From Candidatus Heimdallarchaeota archaeon (GTDB taxonomy: Archaea; Asgardarchaeota; Heimdallarchaeia; Heimdallarchaeales; Heimdallarchaeaceae): a DNA stretch of 9,468 bases. Each line of letters opens with the position of its first letter. Within the stretch, counting starts at the first letter, position 1. Both the position numbers and the translations under genes were made by a program. This document shows positions 1 through 9,468 of the stretch, piece after piece. The notes below the pieces were generated by a model. The model saw only the letters and a list, made by a program, of their open reading frames with translations. It ran no database searches and was not told where the DNA came from. The stretch spans positions 1 through 9,468 of the forward strand of contig DAOVER010000080.1 in the NCBI GenBank assembly GCA_030668875.1, in the 5' to 3' direction.

Positions 1-3000
1 GGTTATTTCCTTGCATTAAACGCTACCTCAGGAAGTGGGGTATTGTCAGTATATCGCTATGATGATGGTATCGCTACATTTCTTGAAGATTATTCTGGAC
101 TCGTTGATTTATCAAAAGATTTCAATTTTGGTATTTCTGTCACCGCATATTCTAGTTATATTCTTATGGAACTTATTTTGGCAGATCAAGTATTAGGCAG
201 TATTCTCGACTATACTACCACCTATTCAATTGGAGGTTATACAGGAACTGCATATTATAGGAATATAGATGGGTTGTACGGTGTAATTAATTCATATGGT
301 GTATATCACAAATACTATTATCCTACCTCTGACCATTTGCAGTTTGATACTTCAAGTAAAGATAATGCTTTTGTTGCTGGGAAGTTACACGTTGATTCAG
401 GTTCACTACAAACCGACATTCTTGACTTCACAGAACAACAAACTCTAACCCTTGTTTTTACTTTTGAACAATGGAACCCACATATTTTCATTGGACTTTC
501 AACTGCAGCTTATAACTATGGTTTCAGGTTCTATATGGGAAATGTTTACAAGAGAACTAATTCAGTTGATGAACTTCTGGAAGATGATTGGTGTAAAAAA
601 AATATCGGTCGTACGATGTATATTACTATCGTTTACGGTTTATCTGATGGTAGTTTCAATATGCAATTATTCACTGATAAATCTTTCAGACCAGTTGAAG
701 GTGACCCCCTCTATATTTCTTTTAATCCTTCCTTCACTGAACCTATTTTCGAAGTATCCAACCTATCTACATATCGTGCTGATTTAATTGTTGAAGCTGT
801 CGAACTCGGAGGAGTATATCCTATCGATGTTGAATTTGATGATGGTTCTTCAACTCACACCTTACGCGGTTCTGGAGAGATAGCTGAATACTATCTACAA
901 GCAACTTCTCAAGGTAGTTTGAAACTTAATTCTCTCATTGAATCTATCTTCATGAAAAGACAGTTCTATGTTCTAGATGGACAAAACACTACCATAGCTT
1001 TGAGTTACTTATCTCCTGGTTATCATGCGGAATCTTATTCAATTTTAATCTACAATCAAGAAGGTGTTTATCTAAACATTTCATTTTCAAGTGGTAGTAA
1101 TAATTGCGAAGAAATCACAGTTTACTATAATAATACTGTTGTAATGGAAGAGTTATTTTCTTACTCTGTTCCCTATTATCAATGGATTGATCTCTCTCTT
1201 ACAATTTCTCCATTATTACAAGTTTCCTTTCAAGTATCTCACCGAGGAGGAAGCTTTAGTGATTCCAGCTCTTTATCATATTATTTAGATGTCGATTCCT
1301 ACTATAATATCAAGATAATTAAACCTCAAAGTTCAGCTGATTACTCTCTTTATTTTTCGTATATTTCAGTCTATAATGGAGCAGGATTTTCTAGTAGTTT
1401 TACTTCAGGAGATTTATCAGAATGGATTTTCAGCGATAAACAATATTTCGAATATTCTCATGATATTAGCACATCTCCTGATCTATTATCACTATATGCT
1501 GAACCCTTAGGTGGATGGGCAGATTTTACTGTTTCAGTAGATGATGGTGCCTATGTACGAACCACCCGACTTCAAGTAGAAGATTTTGAGACTTTCAAAC
1601 CTTATCTAATTTTCCTTCCAAATAGAGTTGATACTACTGAAATTCATAAGTATACAATAATAGTAAATGGCATCCTTACAATATACAGTCTCTCTTTCCA
1701 AGAATCACTGTTAATTAGTGATTGGCTTGTTGCTAAACCATTGGATATTAATAATGAAGAGATACTAAATGATTTTACTCAAATAGGTTATTTGTTAGAG
1801 GATTTTGAAACTGATACTTTTTCTAATATCGATGTAGTTTCAGATCCTACTTCAACACTAGGAAATGTTGGAAAAATCATTGGTGAAGAAACACTTTCCT
1901 TAGGTTCATATATTGGCGGTCTATGTCAGAATGATTTAGATTTATCTTTGTATTATTATTGGAATGGTTTAGGAACACATTATCCATTTGAATTGGAATA
2001 TATCGTTACAAATGAATATCTTGTTCCCTCTGATCAAGTTGAAGAAAGAACAATCCGTGCAATTATTACTCCAGTTATCGCAGATGAACCTAATCAACCT
2101 TTATTTGATGCATGCTATACTGATGGTTCTAATTCTTCCATTAGTTATGTGCACTTCAAATTCTCCTACGTTCCAAACACTTGGCAGTTTGTTTATCTCA
2201 ACCTTGCTTCAATTACTGCTTATTCTGAACAAGAAACTACTAATCCTGAAGAAATCTCTGGACAATGGCAGCTACGGTGGTTTGAAGACATTATTTTCAA
2301 CAACCCTCAGAATGGAGCAGAGGTTTACATTGATGATATTCAAGCCTTCAATATTTATAATGAAGAAAGAGAAGTCTCACCTTTTGCTAGAGCCTATTTA
2401 CGAACTTCAAGTCTTAATTATGGAACTGAAGGAATATGGGTTCCCGAATATGTGAATTCATTAGGTTTTCTAGACTTTTCTCTTATTTCAAATAATGAAA
2501 CTACTCTAGCTACTGAACAAGCTGCTTTTATTGTTGAATGTGATAAAGAAGCTGATGTTGTGGTACATGTTACATCTACTCATCCGTTCATATTATATCA
2601 AGGACAAGTAATTATGGAACATGGTACCTGGATTTCTCCAAATGATCCTGTTGATTACTATTTCACTCTTCATGTTTTTGAAGGAGTAAATCGTTTCCTC
2701 ATCCGAACTTTCCATAAACAGAATGGTCTATTTCCTTGGCAAATCAAAGTTGATTTTCTTACCCAAACCAGTGTTAGAATGATTTCCTCCACTTATGAAG
2801 CTAGAGATGAATCCAAAGTTTTTGATAATTCTTATGAATATTCTATTGCTGATTGGTTAGTTTCCGATAGACCAGTTTCTTTTGGTGATTTAGATTATGT
2901 CAGTTATGATAAAGACCCATTTGTTGAACTTGATGAGAATACTGGTCATTATTTCGCTACTCGTTCCTTACCTTATCCTGATGAACAGTTCAATTACACA

Positions 3001-6000
3001 ATCCACCTTGATCAATATGATAAAGATATAACTGAATGGGTTGGTTTTGATGAATTTTACAATGAAACTGGGTATATGTCCTATATCGATTCCAATATGA
3101 ATACTACTTCTATTGAATTTACTGACCAAATTATTTATTATACTAATTTACACTTTTTGGAGAGCTCTCCTAATGATAATACTCTAAAAATACTTCTTAA
3201 TTACGACCCAACCTCTTTGGTTGAAGCCATGTATTTTGATGGTCAATACATTTATGGTAGATTAGGAGAAATTGGTTATCTTAACTCTACTTCTGATTTT
3301 GTTAACTATATTTCAGTAACTGAATTCAATGGTGCTTATATTCTAGAAATACCTTTATCTGATGCTTGGGAAACCTTTGGCTATGACTTTGAATGGCAAA
3401 ATTGGATACATTCACGTTTTGATGTAGAACCTGAAGCGGGTAAAATAGATATTAGCGGTCGTAATAATCCTTCCAGTGCTGGTGTTCATAGATTTTCTTT
3501 AGTCTTACGATGTCCTGATAATCTTGATTATATCTCATCTGATATCTTTGACATCCAAGCTAATCTTACAAAATATGATGATTCCATAAACACGTTCAAC
3601 CAAATAACTGAATATATTTCAACAAAGCAATCATTATCAGAGCTTTCTCCGCTACTCCAAACTGATGGTGATTATCGTTCATTACCAAGTTCGGGATTGC
3701 AATCTGGTAAGCAATCTTATGCTGGTAAAAAAGTTCTTGAGAGTGAGGTTTCTTGGGATGGTTTCAGATATCATACCATGCGTTTTGTCCTAATTGGAGT
3801 AGATCAGTACGGTAAATATGAAAATATGAATGGAGATGAAACTATTGACGAAAAAGATGCTACAGGTTTAGCTACTTATATGATTGTCAATGATGCTGGT
3901 ACAAAGCACGAACATACTAGTATTGTTCAACACATGATTGGTCCAGAAGGACAAAGTGGAGACTTGCAACCAACCTTGTTATGTCCTAGGTATACTATGA
4001 CAGCTTTTGCAACAGATAGCCTTCTATTCTCTACGTCACATCTTAAATTGTCTCAGACTTCAGCATCAAATTCAAGCATTTCACCCTTGTCTCTTGAACT
4101 TCTTCTTTCGGAAGGCAAACTCACTTCATTCAATATTGGTTCAATTTCCTTAAAGGATGATACTTACAAACAATCATTGAGTACTTTCCTAGCTTCCGCT
4201 GAATCTGATATTTATATTAGCTTTAGTCTTTCAAATGAAATCAGATTTACTTCTGGAAATGAAACTATTTCTTTAGATATTGAATACATCTCTCTTGTTG
4301 TCGGTGAATATAGAGTTGATTTTAGTAAATATCTTCAGAAACTTTCCATTAGTTATAGTGATAACAGAAATCTAGAAGTTATTGAAATCCATTTACTTTC
4401 CAGAGTTATTACTCATACTGATCCTATCGCTTTACACAAAAGCTATCATAAAATTGGACAAGTAAATGGTTTTGCTATTTATGATTATAATAAGATTTTA
4501 GCGATTTCTGAAGGAAAACTTTCTCCTCCTCAACAAGTTTCTCTTGGTCTTTTTGATACTCTAGCTACATATTTGACCAAAATTAAAGGTGGTTTTCTAA
4601 CCGTCATTGATGGTGTTAATAATGTTCTTGATAGTTTTACTGTTCGTTATCCTGGATTAAATAGTCGAATTAACTCTTGGTTTGAGAACTTACAAGATTC
4701 TGTTCAAAACACTCTCTCTTACATCGGTAATGTTGTTACTCAAACTGTTGAACGCATTCTTACCATTTTTAACGATGTTGTTAACATCATCACTAATTCT
4801 CTTATTGATACTATGCAAGGTATTATTGATTGGTGCATCCAACTTTTCAAAGATGCTATTATAGCTTATCAAATCCTCACTAACGCAGTGAAGAACTTCT
4901 TAGCAAAAGCTACAGCTTGGATATCTGAAGCATGGGACAAAGTTTCTGAATTCTTCAAAATGATAGGACAGGCAATAACTGATTTCTTCAAGATGTTAGG
5001 TCAAATTGCTCTTAAGATTATCAAAGGTGTTGCTTCATTCTATGCTGATCTTATGAGGGTTGGTATTCTCTTTATCTTCTCTATTCTATTTGGTACTAAT
5101 GTTGGTCTCCATGATACTCAAGATTTGATGTATGTTGATGGAACTTACGTTTTCGATAATCAAACTGTAACCAATTATCCTCAAGTTTACAAATTAGATC
5201 ATGTTATTGATGTACTTGCTGGTAGAACTGATTTAGAAGGAGAACTTACTGAAGAGGAGCTTGCTGAAATAGCAGAAAATTCTCTTAATCAAGGTCAAGG
5301 AGACAATGCAAATCCAGATCAAGCTGAGAGAATGCTTGCTGAGATGGGGTGTGAGACACAAGGTTTGACTGAAAAAGAAAAAGATTTCTTTGACGTCTTT
5401 AAATGGGTTTGTGCAGTAGAAGATGGAGGTCAATGGGATTATTATTTTGGATTAAGGAAACATCTCAGACTCTATGGACTTAATCTCTTCAGTGAAAATA
5501 CATTCATTCTAATCTGTGAAATTGTAATTGGTTTTCTACCTCTTGGTGGTTTAATTCAAGATGTTAAAGATGTATGTTTAGAACCAATGAAATTTTTCAG
5601 AATATTTGCAGGAGTAATGATTCCTCTTGATATAACAGAGCTTTTTGGGAATGTTTTATCACAAGTTTTTGGAGGATTAAAAGATTCTTGTGCAGGAAAA
5701 GGTATTGGAAAAGCATTAGGTGGCATAAAAGAATTTATCAAAACTATATTTGGTAAGGTTGCAAAGAAATTAAAGGAACCTCTGAAAAGAATACTGAAGG
5801 TTGCAAAAAATGCTTCTCTATTCTTCGTTGCACTACTATGTATGGTTACAATAATATTAATTCCAATGAGTGCTCTTGTATTTGTAGGGTTAGCAGCAGC
5901 CTTCCTGGTAATAATTGGATTTATAATATTCATTGTTGCTGCTTTTAAATTTCTAATGAAACGAATAATGAAACCATTATTTGAGCAGATGTTTAGAGGA

Positions 6001-8940
6001 TTATCTTGGTTGATAAGCAAAACAGGAGATGGCATAAAGAAACTTTTCACAATGGCTGATGAGTTAGCTAAAGGATTATTGACAAGAATAAAGAATAAAA
6101 TCGCAGATATATTCTCTGTTTTATGGAAGAAAATTAAGGGATTATGGGAATTTGGTAATTGGAAACCTTGGAAAGATACTCGAATGCCTTGGTGTGTTGC
6201 GTGTTACTCAAATCTAGCAAAACGTAACATTAATGATGTCTTTGAAGTCATTAAAAACGGAGATGAAGTTTGGGCTACAATAAAGAATCTTGATCCTAGT
6301 TCATGGGATGCAATAAAACATGGAGCTGATTTCGGTTTTCCTGAAGACATTCTTAAAATGGATGCAATAGAAGAAACTGCAAGATTGATATCACCAGGAA
6401 AGTCAGTAGATGAACTGTTTGAAGAAGGAGGAGAATGGACAACAAACGCGAAATTCAGGGAAAGATGGCTCGATGCATCAAATGCTTTCTATAAATCATA
6501 TAAAGAAACAATAGGAAATTTAGTTGCTAAAACCACTATCAAGCAAAATCTGATTGATCTTCAAAGGACTCTTCCCAAAAACAATTTTATTGACCAAGCA
6601 CTTCAGAATGCGGAAATAAACTCAATTGATGATTTAGTCAATGATCCAGATGCTTTGAATGCGGTTTTTAAAAACAGTCAAAATCTAGAAGGTTTGTGGA
6701 AATTCTACTTGGAACAAGCAAATACTAAGTTAGCTAATCTAAAAATTTCAGATCCAGAACTTGCAAAATGTATAACTGAACTAACCGAAGAAGAAGCACA
6801 AGCATATGCAAAAACACTACTAGTACTATGTGGAGCAAATTCTGATCTAATGACACAACCTCCCGGTCCCAAGGTAGCTAATGCGTATGCTGAACCCTTT
6901 CAGAGAGCATGGATAAAACTAAGAATCGATGAAGATGAAATAAGAAACATAATGTATACTGACAAATTTGATGAAATACTTTCCATTGGAAATCCAGGAA
7001 AATACGAAAAAGGTGTGAACCTAAACAATGGATTCGATGATATTCTCATTGGAAAAACTGCTGATAATGCCTATTATTTGAGCTTCATCGAACAAAAAAC
7101 AAATAGCATCAAAATGGTTTGGCTGAGAGATGGAAAGGGTACTGAAGCCTCTCAAAAAATCTTCTTAAATGCAAAGGAAAGTATCGATGATATAGAATCA
7201 AAACTAATTACTTTAGGTTTCTCAAAGAAGGAAGCAGAACAGATAATAGATAATTTATTAAGTAGAGCTAGAGGAAGTCCCCCTAACATTGGAATTGATT
7301 TCTTAAGAAAAGTATCTAATGGAGATTTGCTTGAAACATTAAAAAAAGTGGAACCAGCGCTAGATCAAAATACTATAAATGAAATTATGGAAGCTGCTAT
7401 TAAACAAAATCAAATAATTTCCCTTATTGAAACAGGTTCAACATTTAAAATGGCTTTTGATGAAAATGGTTTTCTAACTGTTTTGAAGAACCAAGAAGAA
7501 CATGTAACAAACATTATAGATTTGAAATATATAAATAAACAGAATAATATTGTAGACATTAAATTTGATGGCTCAATTTTCAAAATAGATATTGATTGTA
7601 ATACAAATAAATTAGTTATTCCTGAATTTCCTGGCAACAACATCAATTTAGATAGTTTAACCACTGCAGAGAAAAACGCATATGTAGAAATCAATCAACT
7701 AATTCAGGATTCTGTTTCAAACATTGAACTTTCTATCATTGGTTTAACACCCAATGAAATCGCTGGTAGAGTAAATCAAATGCAGAAGGCAATTTATGAC
7801 AAATTCATATGTAATAATTTATTTAAAGAACTTCAAATCCTATCAGAAGGAAGTGTTGATTTCAGTTTAGAAACACTATCTAATCCCTCGTATGCAGCTT
7901 TAATTGCAAATCGATTGGAATCCTTTTGTGATACCCATAGTATAGTTACATACAATAGACATCAACAATGGACAGTACCTTTTGGTCAAAGATTTAGTGA
8001 GGTATTTGGAGGATATAGAACTGAAAGTGAGATTCAGAGAACCTTAAAGGAAAAATTAATGCGGTCAGCTTTACTTAACTCTGATTATGATGTTAGTGAC
8101 ATGTCTCTAGATGATTTAGAATGTCTTTTTGAATCCGACCCTGAGTTATGGAATGTAATAATGAGAAACTATAGTCCAGATACATCTACTCCTAGCGGAC
8201 CTTTCTTCAGACGAACATCTGGTGGAAGAAAGAAGACTCTCTATCCATACGATAAAAGCGGTAATCCTTTATTGAAAGATGGTAAAGAAATCTATTTTGA
8301 ATTTGATTTAGATAGCATTATTAACAAACTAAATTCTGAGCATCAAATTAATGATATGCTATTAAAAAATCCTGTTAAATTTCATTACGTGGATGGACAT
8401 TTATTTGCTGATTTTAATTACAATAGAATTGACGGTTTAGCTGAATCATGGGTAGACTTTCTCCGAAAGAAATACTCTGGAATTATTCCAGATGAGCAAT
8501 TTGAGCAACTATTATCTCGATCTAATCTTGAGCATTGTTGGGGTGTAAATTTATTTGATTTTGAAAATTCTGAAGATATGTTCCTTTTTATTATAATTCT
8601 TGAAGAATATAAGAATAATTGGGACGAATTTGCAAGGATAATAGATGATGGTATTGCAAATGGTTTCATAGACTTGGCAAATGATATAGATGTCTCAGTA
8701 CGCAGTACTGGAAGCGGTTTTGTGAATATCGACGGGGAAGAGTATACATTGAGAATGTTAAGTTCTGGGAATGATCGAATGAATTGGAATAAATATGAGA
8801 TTCCATGTGCAAAATCAGGTTTTGAAAGATTGTTAAATGATATAAAACAGCAGGTTTATGTAACAGTATTAGGATTTCCAGAAGATGTTACTGCAAAAAG
8901 TTTTCTTGATTGGATAACAGCAAATTGGCATTTTCTATAG
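1..8940 (+). CDS. Giant (at least 2979 aa, 5'-partial) multidomain surface/membrane protein with a putative PD-(D/E)xK nuclease domain; polymorphic-toxin-like
   Basis: Frame 1 has no stop from base 1 (GGT TAT TTC CTT GCA TTA AAC GCT ACC TCA GGA AGT GGG GTA = GYFLALNATSGSGV) through the TTG at 43 to TAG 8938-8940. A stop-free frame of 8.9 kb in AT-rich DNA is certainly coding. The product call rests on the motifs listed below. Confidence 0.93.
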   Translation, partial: GYFLALNATSGSGVLSVYRYDDGIATFLEDYSGLVDLSKDFNFGISVTAYSSYILMELILADQVLGSILDYTTTYSIGGYTGTAYYRNIDGLYGVINSYGVYHKYYYPTSDHLQFDTSSKDNAFVAGKLHVDSGSLQTDILDFTEQQTLTLVFTFEQWNPHIFIGLSTAAYNYGFRFYMGNVYKRTNSVDELLEDDWCKKNIGRTMYITIVYGLSDGSFNMQLFTDKSFRPVEGDPLYISFNPSFTEPIFEVSNLSTYRADLIVEAVELGGVYPIDVEFDDGSSTHTLRGSGEIAEYYLQATSQGSLKLNSLIESIFMKRQFYVLDGQNTTIALSYLSPGYHAESYSILIYNQEGVYLNISFSSGSNNCEEITVYYNNTVVMEELFSYSVPYYQWIDLSLTISPLLQVSFQVSHRGGSFSDSSSLSYYLDVDSYYNIKIIKPQSSADYSLYFSYISVYNGAGFSSSFTSGDLSEWIFSDKQYFEYSHDISTSPDLLSLYAEPLGGWADFTVSVDDGAYVRTTRLQVEDFETFKPYLIFLPNRVDTTEIHKYTIIVNGILTIYSLSFQESLLISDWLVAKPLDINNEEILNDFTQIGYLLEDFETDTFSNIDVVSDPTSTLGNVGKIIGEETLSLGSYIGGLCQNDLDLSLYYYWNGLGTHYPFELEYIVTNEYLVPSDQVEERTIRAIITPVIADEPNQPLFDACYTDGSNSSISYVHFKFSYVPNTWQFVYLNLASITAYSEQETTNPEEISGQWQLRWFEDIIFNNPQNGAEVYIDDIQAFNIYNEEREVSPFARAYLRTSSLNYGTEGIWVPEYVNSLGFLDFSLISNNETTLATEQAAFIVECDKEADVVVHVTSTHPFILYQGQVIMEHGTWISPNDPVDYYFTLHVFEGVNRFLIRTFHKQNGLFPWQIKVDFLTQTSVRMISSTYEARDESKVFDNSYEYSIADWLVSDRPVSFGDLDYVSYDKDPFVELDENTGHYFATRSLPYPDEQFNYTIHLDQYDKDITEWVGFDEFYNETGYMSYIDSNMNTTSIEFTDQIIYYTNLHFLESSPNDNTLKILLNYDPTSLVEAMYFDGQYIYGRLGEIGYLNSTSDFVNYISVTEFNGAYILEIPLSDAWETFGYDFEWQNWIHSRFDVEPEAGKIDISGRNNPSSAGVHRFSLVLRCPDNLDYISSDIFDIQANLTKYDDSINTFNQITEYISTKQSLSELSPLLQTDGDYRSLPSSGLQSGKQSYAGKKVLESEVSWDGFRYHTMRFVLIGVDQYGKYENMNGDETIDEKDATGLATYMIVNDAGTKHEHTSIVQHMIGPEGQSGDLQPTLLCPRYTMTAFATDSLLFSTSHLKLSQTSASNSSISPLSLELLLSEGKLTSFNIGSISLKDDTYKQSLSTFLASAESDIYISFSLSNEIRFTSGNETISLDIEYISLVVGEYRVDFSKYLQKLSISYSDNRNLEVIEIHLLSRVITHTDPIALHKSYHKIGQVNGFAIYDYNKILAISEGKLSPPQQVSLGLFDTLATYLTKIKGGFLTVIDGVNNVLDSFTVRYPGLNSRINSWFENLQDSVQNTLSYIGNVVTQTVERILTIFNDVVNIITNSLIDTMQGIIDWCIQLFKDAIIAYQILTNAVKNFLAKATAWISEAWDKVSEFFKMIGQAITDFFKMLGQIALKIIKGVASFYADLMRVGILFIFSILFGTNVGLHDTQDLMYVDGTYVFDNQTVTNYPQVYKLDHVIDVLAGRTDLEGELTEEELAEIAENSLNQGQGDNANPDQAERMLAEMGCETQGLTEKEKDFFDVFKWVCAVEDGGQWDYYFGLRKHLRLYGLNLFSENTFILICEIVIGFLPLGGLIQDVKDVCLEPMKFFRIFAGVMIPLDITELFGNVLSQVFGGLKDSCAGKGIGKALGGIKEFIKTIFGKVAKKLKEPLKRILKVAKNASLFFVALLCMVTIILIPMSALVFVGLAAAFLVIIGFIIFIVAAFKFLMKRIMKPLFEQMFRGLSWLISKTGDGIKKLFTMADELAKGLLTRIKNKIADIFSVLWKKIKGLWEFGNWKPWKDTRMPWCVACYSNLAKRNINDVFEVIKNGDEVWATIKNLDPSSWDAIKHGADFGFPEDILKMDAIEETARLISPGKSVDELFEEGGEWTTNAKFRERWLDASNAFYKSYKETIGNLVAKTTIKQNLIDLQRTLPKNNFIDQALQNAEINSIDDLVNDPDALNAVFKNSQNLEGLWKFYLEQANTKLANLKISDPELAKCITELTEEEAQAYAKTLLVLCGANSDLMTQPPGPKVANAYAEPFQRAWIKLRIDEDEIRNIMYTDKFDEILSIGNPGKYEKGVNLNNGFDDILIGKTADNAYYLSFIEQKTNSIKMVWLRDGKGTEASQKIFLNAKESIDDIESKLITLGFSKKEAEQIIDNLLSRARGSPPNIGIDFLRKVSNGDLLETLKKVEPALDQNTINEIMEAAIKQNQIISLIETGSTFKMAFDENGFLTVLKNQEEHVTNIIDLKYINKQNNIVDIKFDGSIFKIDIDCNTNKLVIPEFPGNNINLDSLTTAEKNAYVEINQLIQDSVSNIELSIIGLTPNEIAGRVNQMQKAIYDKFICNNLFKELQILSEGSVDFSLETLSNPSYAALIANRLESFCDTHSIVTYNRHQQWTVPFGQRFSEVFGGYRTESEIQRTLKEKLMRSALLNSDYDVSDMSLDDLECLFESDPELWNVIMRNYSPDTSTPSGPFFRRTSGGRKKTLYPYDKSGNPLLKDGKEIYFEFDLDSIINKLNSEHQINDMLLKNPVKFHYVDGHLFADFNYNRIDGLAESWVDFLRKKYSGIIPDEQFEQLLSRSNLEHCWGVNLFDFENSEDMFLFIIILEEYKNNWDEFARIIDDGIANGFIDLANDIDVSVRSTGSGFVNIDGEEYTLRMLSSGNDRMNWNKYEIPCAKSGFERLLNDIKQQVYVTVLGFPEDVTAKSFLDWITANWHFL
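370..1380 (+). other. Beta-rich N-terminal region, probably two concanavalin-A/LamG-like (lectin-fold) domains
   Basis: Alternating hydrophobic strands rich in S/T/Y/D, e.g. TLTLVFTF..HIFIGL..YGFRFY..MYITIVY and YQWIDLSLTI..VSFQV..YSLYFSYISVYN. The fold is assigned from the pattern only. Confidence 0.35.
1714..2760 (+). other. PA14-like beta-sandwich domain 1, interrupted by an inserted CBM-like domain
   Basis: First strand ISDWLVAKP (1714-1740). The domain resumes at GIWVPEYVNSLGFLDF..AAFIVECDKEADVVVHVTSTHPFILYQGQVI..FTLHVFEGVNRFLIRTFHKQNGLFPWQIKV. This resembles the recalled pattern I.DWLV.GP..G.IDF..AY..I.S....V.L..GSDD..V..NG..V..L..G.N.LLIK. Confidence 0.5.
1786..2352 (+). other. Galactose-binding-like jelly-roll carbohydrate-binding module (CBM4/9, CBM11 or CIA30-like)
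   Basis: Starts YLLEDFE (1789-1809), contains PNTWQFVYLNL and ends GAEVYIDDIQAF (YIDDI 2326-2340). The EDFE..W..V.I.L..YIDDI pattern is typical of this fold. Confidence 0.6.
2845..3510 (+). other. PA14-like beta-sandwich domain 2 (diverged paralog of domain 1)
   Basis: IADWLVSDRP (2845-2874) parallels ISDWLVAKP, and AGVHRFSLVLR (3478-3510) parallels EGVNRFLIR. The segment IIYYTNLHF..LKILLNYD..AMYFDGQYIY parallels the central strands. Confidence 0.4.
3823..3858 (+). other. EF-hand/dockerin-like Ca2+-binding loop
   Basis: NMNGDETIDEKD matches the 12-residue loop pattern (D/N)xNxDxxIDxxD and is followed by a short helix (ATGLATY). Only one copy was seen. Confidence 0.45.
4546..5094 (+). other. 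Long amphipathic alpha-helical tract, tape-measure-like
   Basis: About 180 aa with a single proline and a continuous hydrophobic face (..WFENLQDSVQNTLSYIGNVVTQTVERILTIFNDVV..AWISEAWDKVSEFFKMIGQAITDFFKMLGQ..). W/F/F fall at 11-residue spacing in its distal part. It ends in a short hydrophobic segment, VGILFIFSILFG. Confidence 0.55.
4948..5013 (+). repeat. Degenerate 33-bp (11-codon) tandem duplication
   Basis: gaattcttcaaaatgataggacaggcaataact / gatttcttcaagatgttaggtcaaattgctctt, with 19 of the first 23 nt identical. The copies encode EFFKMIGQAIT and DFFKMLGQIAL. Confidence 0.7.
5518..5580 (+). other. Pre-toxin (PT-TG-like) motif
   Basis: EIVIGFLPLGGLIQDVKDVCL resembles the GFIP.VG.I.D..D motif that precedes variable toxin regions in polymorphic toxins. 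The downstream TG..L...ER part of canonical PT-TG is not evident. Confidence 0.4.
5812..5946 (+). other. 45-residue uncharged hydrophobic segment (two-helix membrane hairpin)
   Basis: ASLFFVALLCMVTIILIPMSALVFVGLAAAFLVIIGFIIFIVAAF contains no charged residue and has a Pro-Met-Ser turn near the middle. Both flanks are K/R-rich (KKLKEPLKRILKVAK and KFLMKRIMK). Confidence 0.85.
6868..7140 (+). other. Putative PD-(D/E)xK (restriction-endonuclease-fold, Tox-REase-like) nuclease domain
   Basis: Helix KVANAYAEPFQRAW (E at 6892), strand NNGFDDILIG (D at 7036) and strand YYLSFIEQKT (E at 7090, K at 7096). The order and spacing match the E..G[FI]D....[YI]I.E.K core of REase-fold toxins. Confidence 0.55.
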
Positions 8941-8946
8941 AAAGTG

Positions 8947-9053
8947 TGGTAGTCCATAGGAGAAAATCGAACAGATATCACTCAAATATCTGTTTCTCGA
9001 ACTCCTGCCGCCGGATTCAAAGTCCGGTATCCTTGCCGCTAGACTAATGGACT
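8947..9053 (-). tRNA. tRNA-Gln: tRNA-Gln(UUG), intron-containing, CCA encoded, archaeal type
   Basis: Minus strand: AGTCCAT TA GTCT AGCGGCAA GGAT A CCGGA CTTTGAA TCCGG CGGC AGGAG TTCGAG[32-nt intron]T CTCCT ATGGACT A CCA. The acceptor (7 bp), anticodon (5 bp) and T (5 bp) stems pair perfectly, and the D stem has two G.U pairs. The anticodon TTG is at 9020-9018 and the spliced length is 75 nt. A1-U72 is the archaeal tRNA-Gln signature, whereas bacteria typically have U1-A72. Confidence 0.96.
8964..8995 (-). other. 32-nt tRNA intron at non-canonical T-loop position 59/60 with a relaxed bulge-helix-bulge motif
   Basis: The intron is AAACAGATATTTGAGTGATATCTGTTCGATTT. It has an inner 9-bp helix AACAGATAT/ATATCTGTT, a central helix TTCG/CGAT (3 WC pairs plus U.U) and 3-nt bulges AGA and TTT. 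Cutting after the 2nd nt of each bulge restores a 7-nt T-loop, TTCGAGT. Confidence 0.88.
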
Positions 9054-9132: not shown

Positions 9133-9468
9133 TTATTTTGCTGGTTTATCTTGTTCTTTTTTTATACTATCTGCAAAATCCTTTACATCAGAGACTTGTC
9201 TTATCATAAATGAACCACCTAAACCACCTAAAATGGAAATAACACCTATCCAGAGAAGAAATCCAAAACCACTTATTGCGACACCATATTTTGAGATTGC
9301 ATACAAACTAGCATAAATTATATTTAACAAACCTCCAAATGTTGCTAAAGAGAATACAAAGAAGATTGCTGGGTGGAACTTTTTATTTACTTTTATCAGT
9401 TCGGGGTCTCTTTTCCAATCCTCTTCAATTTCATTGTAATATTCTACTTGTTTCTTAGGTCTAAAAGG
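9133..9468 (-). CDS. Small integral membrane protein, 5'-partial (at least 111 aa), two predicted TM helices, function unknown
   Basis: The frame is open from the right edge: PFRPKKQVEYYNEIEEDWKRDPELIKVNKKFHPAIFFVFSLATFGGLLNIIYASLYAISKYGVAISGFGFLLWIGVISILGGLGGSFMIRQVSDVKDFADSIKKEQDKPAK, with stop TAA at 9135-9133. The track's start at 9330 is an internal TTG. Two clear hydrophobic segments lie between charged flanks. Confidence 0.75.
   Translation of the reverse strand, partial: PFRPKKQVEYYNEIEEDWKRDPELIKVNKKFHPAIFFVFSLATFGGLLNIIYASLYAISKYGVAISGFGFLLWIGVISILGGLGGSFMIRQVSDVKDFADSIKKEQDKPAK

Follow-up and report, generated by a model that had tools for sequence, protein, structure and literature searches.

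An invariant E/D/K site at the head of an exchangeable module in a Heimdall-group giant protein, and its possible reading as a PD-(D/E)xK-type nuclease

Do the giant surface proteins of Heimdall-group archaea carry an enzymatic activity, and if so, where in the polypeptide would it lie? Wu et al. placed Heimdallarchaeia closest to eukaryotes and described, in Ca. Heimdallarchaeum, aloposons with tandem giant genes of 3000 to 6000 amino acids (aa) (Otus and Ephialtes), for which they gave neither a function nor a catalytic site (Wu et al. 2022, Nat Microbiol 7:200, PMC8813620). The stretch of DNA analyzed here (the window) is one entire contig of 9,468 nucleotides (nt) from a Candidatus Heimdallarchaeota archaeon (G000:C25, in a genome of 3.2 Mb in 99 contigs) and encodes a giant protein. 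Of the sequencing runs listed for it, four are DNA runs of a single marine-sediment study, from which the contig probably derives, and none is an RNA run. An initial annotation, made from the sequence alone, had picked out within this protein a glutamate, an aspartate and an E-x-K motif and had interpreted them as the canonical catalytic arrangement of restriction endonuclease (REase)-fold toxin domains. Here the observation itself is confirmed and the interpretation is partly supported: the site stands at the head of an exchangeable, probably cytoplasmic module fused to a giant aloposon-like surface protein. Judging from sequence conservation and predicted structure, it is plausible, with a probability of about 0.4, that the domain is a metal-dependent phosphodiesterase (nuclease) of the PD-(D/E)xK type, though a very divergent one, and this is the best single reading because an invariant E/D/K trio falls in exactly the positions occupied in that superfamily. 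The features concerned are as follows.

1..8940, + strand: giant open reading frame (ORF), open at its 5' end at the end of the contig, with 2979 aa visible
6763..7221, + strand: first domain of the C-terminal module, aa 2255-2407, a candidate PD-(D/E)xK-like core (AlphaFold2 models and alignments)
6868..7140, + strand: the E2298 / G-F-D2346 / E2364-x-K2366 site singled out by the initial annotation
7222..7590, + strand: helical region followed by a small beta domain, aa 2408-2530, the best-conserved and best-modelled part of the module

The conserved site and its predicted structural setting

The initial annotation had counted residues from a TTG at nt 43, so that its numbers equal the window residue numbers minus 14. 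All four residues that it named could be located and renumbered. Its E2284 is E2298 (nt 6892-6894, in the context AEPFQ), its D2332, in NNGFDDILI, is D2346 (nt 7036-7038, context NNGFDD, with G-F-D2346 at nt 7030-7038), and its E2350 and K2352, in FIEQK, are E2364 and K2366 (nt 7090-7098).

The pattern E-x(30-60)-D-x(10-25)-[DE]-x-K occurs 15 times in the giant protein compared with 28 ± 8 times in shuffled versions of it, and as the bare pattern is thus not enriched, the motif alone is no evidence. This lack of enrichment within a single sequence is what speaks for a chance pattern devoid of functional meaning, a reading that we give next to no credence and that conservation has already refuted. 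We assembled 32 non-redundant copies of the ~300-residue region, which are ~20 to 46% identical over ~300 columns, and found that E, D and K are invariant down to ~20% identity, in a region where only seven columns are invariant at all (E2298, D2346, K2366, L2419, G2431, K2437 and L2475). G2344 and F2345 are conserved in 31 of the 32 homologues, and the second Asp of NNGFDD, D2347, is variable. At position 2364, the acid of the E-x-K motif, 27 of the 32 sequences have E, one has D, three have N and one has T. E2298, D2346, K2366 and, in most sequences, E2364 are the best-conserved polar residues of the domain. Conservation in homologues, on which the earlier interpretation had been made to depend, is accordingly complete for E, D and K and extends to 27 of 32 sequences for the E of E-x-K. 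Because E, D and K are conserved across the 32 homologues, the motif residues are the core of a selected site.

Two AlphaFold2 models of the region were compared, one of aa 2236-2530 built on an 18-sequence alignment (predicted local distance difference test [pLDDT] score, 79; predicted template modelling [pTM] score, 0.77) and one of the core alone, aa 2255-2407 (pLDDT, 73; pTM, 0.57). In both, the first domain is predicted to combine helices, an antiparallel sheet of three or four strands and a long helix, and the models agree on where the conserved residues lie. A helix at 2294-2307 bears E2298, in keeping with the initial annotation, which had placed this glutamate on a helix, and is followed by a short helix and by a strand at 2325-2328. 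The next strand, 2347-2352, is directly preceded by D2346, and strand 2357-2364 ends in E2364, with K2366 two residues further on in a turn. A long helix at 2382-2404 follows the E-x-K hairpin. The distance from D2346 to E2364 is 18 residues, within the 10 to 20 residues that separate the D from the (D/E)-x-K, after a helix-1 acid, in PD-(D/E)xK proteins.

The PD-(D/E)xK core, as reportedly defined by Steczkiewicz and colleagues in Nucleic Acids Research (NAR) in 2012, has the order alpha-beta-beta-beta-alpha-beta, and the models match this order as far as the second helix.

The stretch downstream of the first domain, aa 2408-2530, was modelled at a pLDDT of ~90 as a helical region, which contains L2419, G2431, K2437 and L2475, and a small beta domain; structure comparison yielded no fold assignment for this stretch. 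Two elements of the helical region are conserved as strongly as the E/D/K site. One is the motif I-G-x-(D/N)-F-x-x-K at aa 2431-2438 (nt 7291-7314), in which G2431 and K2437 are the invariant residues, and the other is the helix A-I-K-Q-N-Q-L-I-S-L, which carries invariant L2475 (nt 7420-7428 correspond to aa 2474-2476).

Extent, distribution and exchange of the module

The remainder of the giant protein divides as follows.

6706..8937, + strand: lineage-specific module, predicted cytoplasmic, aa 2236-2979, collinear in full-length homologues
5956..6705, + strand: basic/helical linker, aa 1986-2235, containing a drop in identity to the orthologue at ~aa 2100
5029..5955, + strand: membrane block, aa ~1677-1985, with ~five hydrophobic helices (hydropathy scan)
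1..4560, + strand: exported beta-rich ectodomain, aa 1-1520, recognized by composition and without a Pfam family

From aa ~2236 to the C terminus, the protein forms a single collinear module of ~745 residues, which ends in a conserved W/Y-I-x-x-N-W motif in all full-length homologues. ORFs of 909 to 922 aa from sister genomes match residues ~8-778 of the 780-aa query (aa 2200-2979). The initial annotation had remarked that about 610 aa follow the site, and 613 residues do lie C-terminal of K2366. It had also considered such an internal position unusual for a toxin domain; this apparent oddity is explained by the collinear module, which reaches the C terminus and whose first domain contains the motif.

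An exhaustive phmmer search with aa 2200-2979 against 1.84 billion representative proteins returned 12 relatives, none of them annotated, and a word-indexed search of a 5.8-billion-protein set added one longer relative (P0014). Word-indexed searches yielded no proteins of 70 to 268 aa with the core profile. At the genome level, a single-sequence search of the 23 other genomes of the genus detected the module family in 11 of them. Among 82 genomes of the class, a profile search detected it in 18, with the window genome included, that is, in four genera of the Heimdallarchaeaceae and in one genome of another family. None of the module-bearing architectures examined, in seven full-length homologues, contained a Pfam domain. 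The module is previously undescribed.

The module occurs in three architectures. It is found in soluble proteins of 741 to 986 aa that have an N-terminal coiled coil and neither a signal peptide nor a membrane helix, in membrane proteins of 1044 to 1872 aa, where it follows a multihelix block, and in giants, namely, the window protein and a 4628-aa orthologue. A metagenome contig holds a complete gene for a protein of 1174 aa, P0014 (L138:3441-6965), which corresponds to the window protein from aa ~1826 to its end. Because this gene covers membrane block, linker and module, the giant can be regarded as an ectodomain fused to what is elsewhere a stand-alone protein.

Among the neighbors of the P0014 gene are genes for a Memo-family protein, a HEAT-repeat protein and a small GTPase of the Arf/Rag-like type. 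One group of soluble paralogues (905 to 917 aa) is encoded, in four or more genomes of the genus, between the Fumerase_C and Fumerase genes for the subunits of class I fumarate hydratase, an odd yet conserved position that was seen at L034:2753-7310 and also at L035, L036 and L006-L008. The window genome has a second, weak match at G000:C32:31063-31467, which covers the helical/beta part (profile positions 169-291; E, 5e-5) and lies in a 557-aa frame interrupted by one TAG. The copy outside the family (G202:C238:2344-3204, in a 1003-aa frame; E, 1e-75) was found in only 1 of 12 genomes of that other family and could be a transfer or a binning artefact.

On which side of the membrane would the module lie? 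The membrane block includes a hairpin of ~45 residues with K/R-rich loops on both sides. In the ectodomain, S, T, Y and N make up 31% of residues and N-x-S/T sequons occur at 0.92 per 100 aa, compared with 0.13 per 100 aa in the module. We infer that the module is cytoplasmic, with the ~five-helix membrane block in a predicted N-out, C-in topology, because the soluble forms have no export signal, because K/R-rich loops flank the last hairpin and because sequon density drops.

Comparison with the full-length orthologue from a sister genus, which has a signal peptide (G040:C38 192057-205940, 4628 aa) and relative to which the window protein would lack ~1650 N-terminal residues, revealed identity that differs sharply between regions. 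Overall identity is 40.5% over 3034 columns; it is 38 to 59% in the ectodomain, 50 to 72% in the membrane block, which is the most conserved part, and 24 to 33% from aa ~2100 onward. The fall from ~50% to ~24-33% occurs at aa ~2100 (window position ~6300), ~115 residues past the last membrane helix, and is a probable recombination boundary on the strength of these alignments. In a maximum likelihood tree of the module, the closest grouping of the window copy is not with the module of the orthologous giant; it falls together with the membrane form of 1174 aa and two soluble proteins, of 741 and 967 aa (ultrafast bootstrap [UFboot], 97; Shimodaira-Hasegawa-like approximate likelihood ratio test [SH-aLRT], 98). 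An approximately unbiased (AU) test rejects the modules of the window and G040 giants as sisters (p = 0.004), a result to be read with caution since long branches are present. Two independent lines of sequence evidence thus point to exchange of the module among lineages of paralogues, and this exchange of the C terminus, toxin-like in character, is real.

Nuclease, binding domain, toxin or mobility factor

A PD-(D/E)xK fold, metal binding, nuclease chemistry and any coupling to the ectodomain are inferred. Mg2+ or Mn2+ would be bound by E2298 (helix 1), by D2346, where strand 2 begins, and by E2364, where strand 3 ends; K2366 would orient the attacking water, and cleavage of nucleic acid would take place inside the cell that makes the protein. 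Where the module is membrane-anchored, in the giants and the mid-size forms, it would work at the membrane and form the output end of an exposed ectodomain; the soluble paralogues have an N-terminal coiled coil where the others have the anchor.

Searches for relatives gave two hints in favor of this reading. A language-model feature search with aa 2260-2460 returned, among the matches listed that carry a family name, only PD-(D/E)xK families (Mrr_cat/NOV_C, CDI_toxin_EC869_like and Tox-REase-7, with scores of 0.78 to 0.85, where a score below 0.9 is a lead at most). Furthermore, we used hhalign against profiles that we built from Asgard genomes for Hjc, Mrr_cat and NucS_C (VRR_NUC was too rare in Asgard genomes), and the alignment to Hjc placed D with D and E-x-K with E-x-K in register, although weakly (P, 0.044 with 18 sequences and 0.14 with 32).

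Other results on the domain weigh against a nuclease. Pfam and PADLOC gave nothing above cut-off for four pieces of the protein, 18 domain homologues and the seven full-length homologues; the sub-threshold strays were RuvA_C, BrxB and, in one of the 18 domain homologues, VRR_NUC (E, 0.009). Searches of the PDB with phmmer and hmmsearch returned no nuclease, only chance matches to enolase, L28 and YycE. With hhalign, nothing aligned in register with Mrr (P, 0.18 to 0.41) or NucS (P, 0.07), neither result being significant, and all hhalign probabilities were ~1% or less. A comparison of the predicted domain by Foldseek, which the initial annotation had proposed, listed no nuclease or REase-fold match on the strand core; with both models, Foldseek (PDB and viral structures), VIA-align (a wide search and a second look) and the ESM Atlas, compared by shape, likewise listed no PD-(D/E)xK match there. 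Feature searches with the 126-aa core alone led to binding domains of the SUKH/SMI1/Syd type (0.83 to 0.87) rather than to nucleases, and aa 2540-2979 gave no usable match. Where most homologues have the acid of E-x-K, one lineage has N and a single sequence has T. The stretch after K2366 (2367-2375) is variable, has a pLDDT of <50 in the longer model and forms a fourth hairpin strand in one model, not the canonical helix. The models themselves may be wrong in either direction because the alignment is shallow (18 sequences). Of the canonical catalytic arrangement claimed at the outset, then, the residue order, the spacing and the placement on helix and strands hold, and no link to a known nuclease or REase-fold family emerged from Pfam, PDB sequence and profile searches, hhalign against Hjc, Mrr and NucS, Foldseek or VIA-align.

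A rival reading is a non-nuclease alpha+beta domain for binding or regulation, with a helix packed on an antiparallel meander (of the SUKH or PepSY type, or a new fold), in which the invariant E, D and K would either be joined in a buried network of salt bridges or contact a ligand or partner and the module would act at the membrane without cutting nucleic acid. We hold this to be possible, and it stands close behind the nuclease reading. It would explain why structure searches matched the strand core to generic four-stranded meanders only, why the core by itself led to SUKH/SMI1/Syd and to CcmS, why the E-x-K acid is replaced by N or T in 4 of the 32 sequences and why conservation and model confidence peak downstream, at G2431, K2437 and L2475, instead of at the putative active site. 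It fares less well with the SUKH matches themselves, which score below 0.9 and share few features, and with the charged trio, whose distribution over helix 1, the start of strand 2 and the end of strand 3, together with G-x-D and h-h-h-E-x-K (h, hydrophobic), is PD-(D/E)xK-like. The nuclease reading takes this arrangement as its foundation, and two further proposals share its fold assignment and differ in what the nuclease would be for. One, implied by the initial annotation, is an REase-fold toxin of a polymorphic-toxin-like or contact-dependent system, delivered into a neighboring cell, with the tail of ~610 residues serving as a second effector or a built-in inhibitor. The domain does belong to the last third of a giant surface protein, whose final ~880 aa have diverged from the orthologue far more than the rest (24 to 33% identity versus 38 to 72%), and the C-terminal part groups with other paralogues, the sister relationship of the giants' modules being rejected by the AU test, so that a conserved N-terminal carrier with a variable, recombining C terminus is present and exchange occurs as in polymorphic toxins. 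Against delivery stand the predicted cytoplasmic location (positive-inside loops and sequon depletion), the presence of the same module in soluble proteins without a signal at fixed chromosomal positions, such as between the fumarate hydratase subunit genes, the homologous and collinear nature of the exchanged tails, which are not unrelated toxin cassettes, and the absence of any Tox-REase or contact-dependent inhibition (CDI) toxin Pfam match. Immunity genes were also sought in the DNA past the stop codon, where the window contains the following.

9011..9044, - strand: partial tRNA-like match (Rfam, sub-threshold)
9133..9468, - strand: small membrane-protein ORF, convergent, cut by the contig end

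The giant is thus followed in the window by a tRNA-like remnant and a convergent ORF, not by a co-directional gene of the immunity type, and in the G040 orthologue by a convergent zinc-ribbon gene; no conserved co-directional small gene was found downstream in the window, the G040 orthologue, the 1174-aa form or the soluble forms. Because of the predicted cytoplasmic location and this downstream context, the polymorphic-toxin reading is weak, and we think it very improbable that the domain is a delivered toxin; the toxin framing of the initial annotation is not supported. The other proposal, which seems to us improbable as well, if a shade less so, is that an aloposon-like element relies on the nuclease-like module to move or to maintain itself, the module cutting, for instance, site-specifically at the tRNA target. 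A PD-(D/E)xK protein, TnsA, plays such a role in Tn7. This proposal draws on the locus. At G040, genes for a ParA/MinD-like ATPase (AAA_31, 5e-26, with CbiA and ParA matches) and a 249-aa protein precede tandem giants of 2071 and 4628 aa, which is the layout of aloposons, whose upstream genes include a MinD/ParA-like ATPase and which have a tRNA integration site downstream (Wu et al. 2022, PMC8813620). The tRNA-like match of the window lies directly past the stop codon of the giant (Rfam RF00005, model positions 10-42), and in genome G041, a single contig, an intron-containing tRNA-Gly(tcc) gene comes immediately after the pair of giants (4223 and 5557 aa). It has to contend with the weakness of the window match, which at 19 bits falls below the gathering threshold of 29 and is accompanied by no ARAGORN tRNA in the window. 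It has to contend, too, with the G041 giants of 4223 and 5557 aa, which are not matched by the hidden Markov model (HMM) of the module, the only match being a 967-aa ORF 11 kb away, with the housekeeping neighborhoods of the soluble paralogues and with the awkwardness of a membrane-anchored nuclease as a transposase.

The membrane block supplies a separate connection to other giants. Its segment at aa 1825-1893 (window positions 5473-5679, the L-P-x-G-G-L-I-x-D region) is 28 to 34% identical to Heimdall giants of 5237 to 6104 aa and is the sole part of the window protein with detectable similarity to them; with the 5557-aa giant of G041, the match covers 79 aa at 29% identity (E, 5e-6).

Implications and comparison with known systems

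For giants that had no assigned function, a conserved, exchangeable module of ~745 residues with an invariant E/D/K site is now defined, and its soluble forms of 741 to 986 aa, which would be far easier to express than a membrane protein of 4600 residues, offer an experimental handle. Should nuclease activity be borne out, the domain would add to the PD-(D/E)xK superfamily a new branch that is invisible to current profile and fold searches, and its activity would be the first catalytic one tied to such giant proteins; should it not, the toxin reading can be dropped. An extended picture would make the Heimdall-group giants transmembrane devices in which the ectodomain controls an exchangeable cytoplasmic effector, headed by a new divergent PD-(D/E)xK-type nuclease and also present as free paralogues. 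This picture we put forward as an unlikely one overall; if true, it would describe a receptor-coupled intracellular nuclease that responds, for example, to virus or to cell contact.

The domain resembles the PD-(D/E)xK superfamily, including Hjc (PF01870), in having an acidic residue on the first helix, G-x-D with hydrophobic residues at strand 2, a hydrophobic strand 3 ending in E-x-K, the 18-residue spacing from D to E and a helix after the hairpin, and the Hjc profile aligns with both D and E-x-K in register. It differs in that sequence and profile similarity are not significant (Hjc P, 0.04 to 0.14), that the canonical last strand was not identified, that some members have N or T in place of the E of E-x-K and that the domain heads a module of ~745 aa without another recognizable domain.

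With the REase-fold toxins of polymorphic toxin and CDI systems (Tox-REase and the CdiA-CT EC869-like family, PF21111), it shares a location in the C-terminal part of a very large surface protein, exchange of that part between lineages and a weak language-model resemblance. Unlike those toxins, it has its site away from the extreme C terminus, is predicted to be cytoplasmic, has no immunity gene and no Pfam match, has soluble paralogues without a signal and is exchanged as homologous, collinear tails.

The window and G040 loci, finally, have an aloposon-like layout. They differ from aloposons in that the first G040 giant has only 2071 aa and that only two co-directional genes lie directly upstream of the giants at G040, not the four with which aloposons were defined (Wu et al. 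2022, PMC8813620); from the aloposon giants Otus and Ephialtes they differ in that sequence similarity is not detectable outside the membrane-block segment and that the module profile has no match in the 4223/5557-aa pair. They agree with them in the Heimdall-group host, in the membrane-anchored giant with its 79-aa segment at 29% identity to the 5557-aa protein of G041, in the ParA/MinD-like ATPase gene with tandem giant genes at G040 and in the putative tRNA-like remnant, matched below threshold, directly downstream of the giant in the window.

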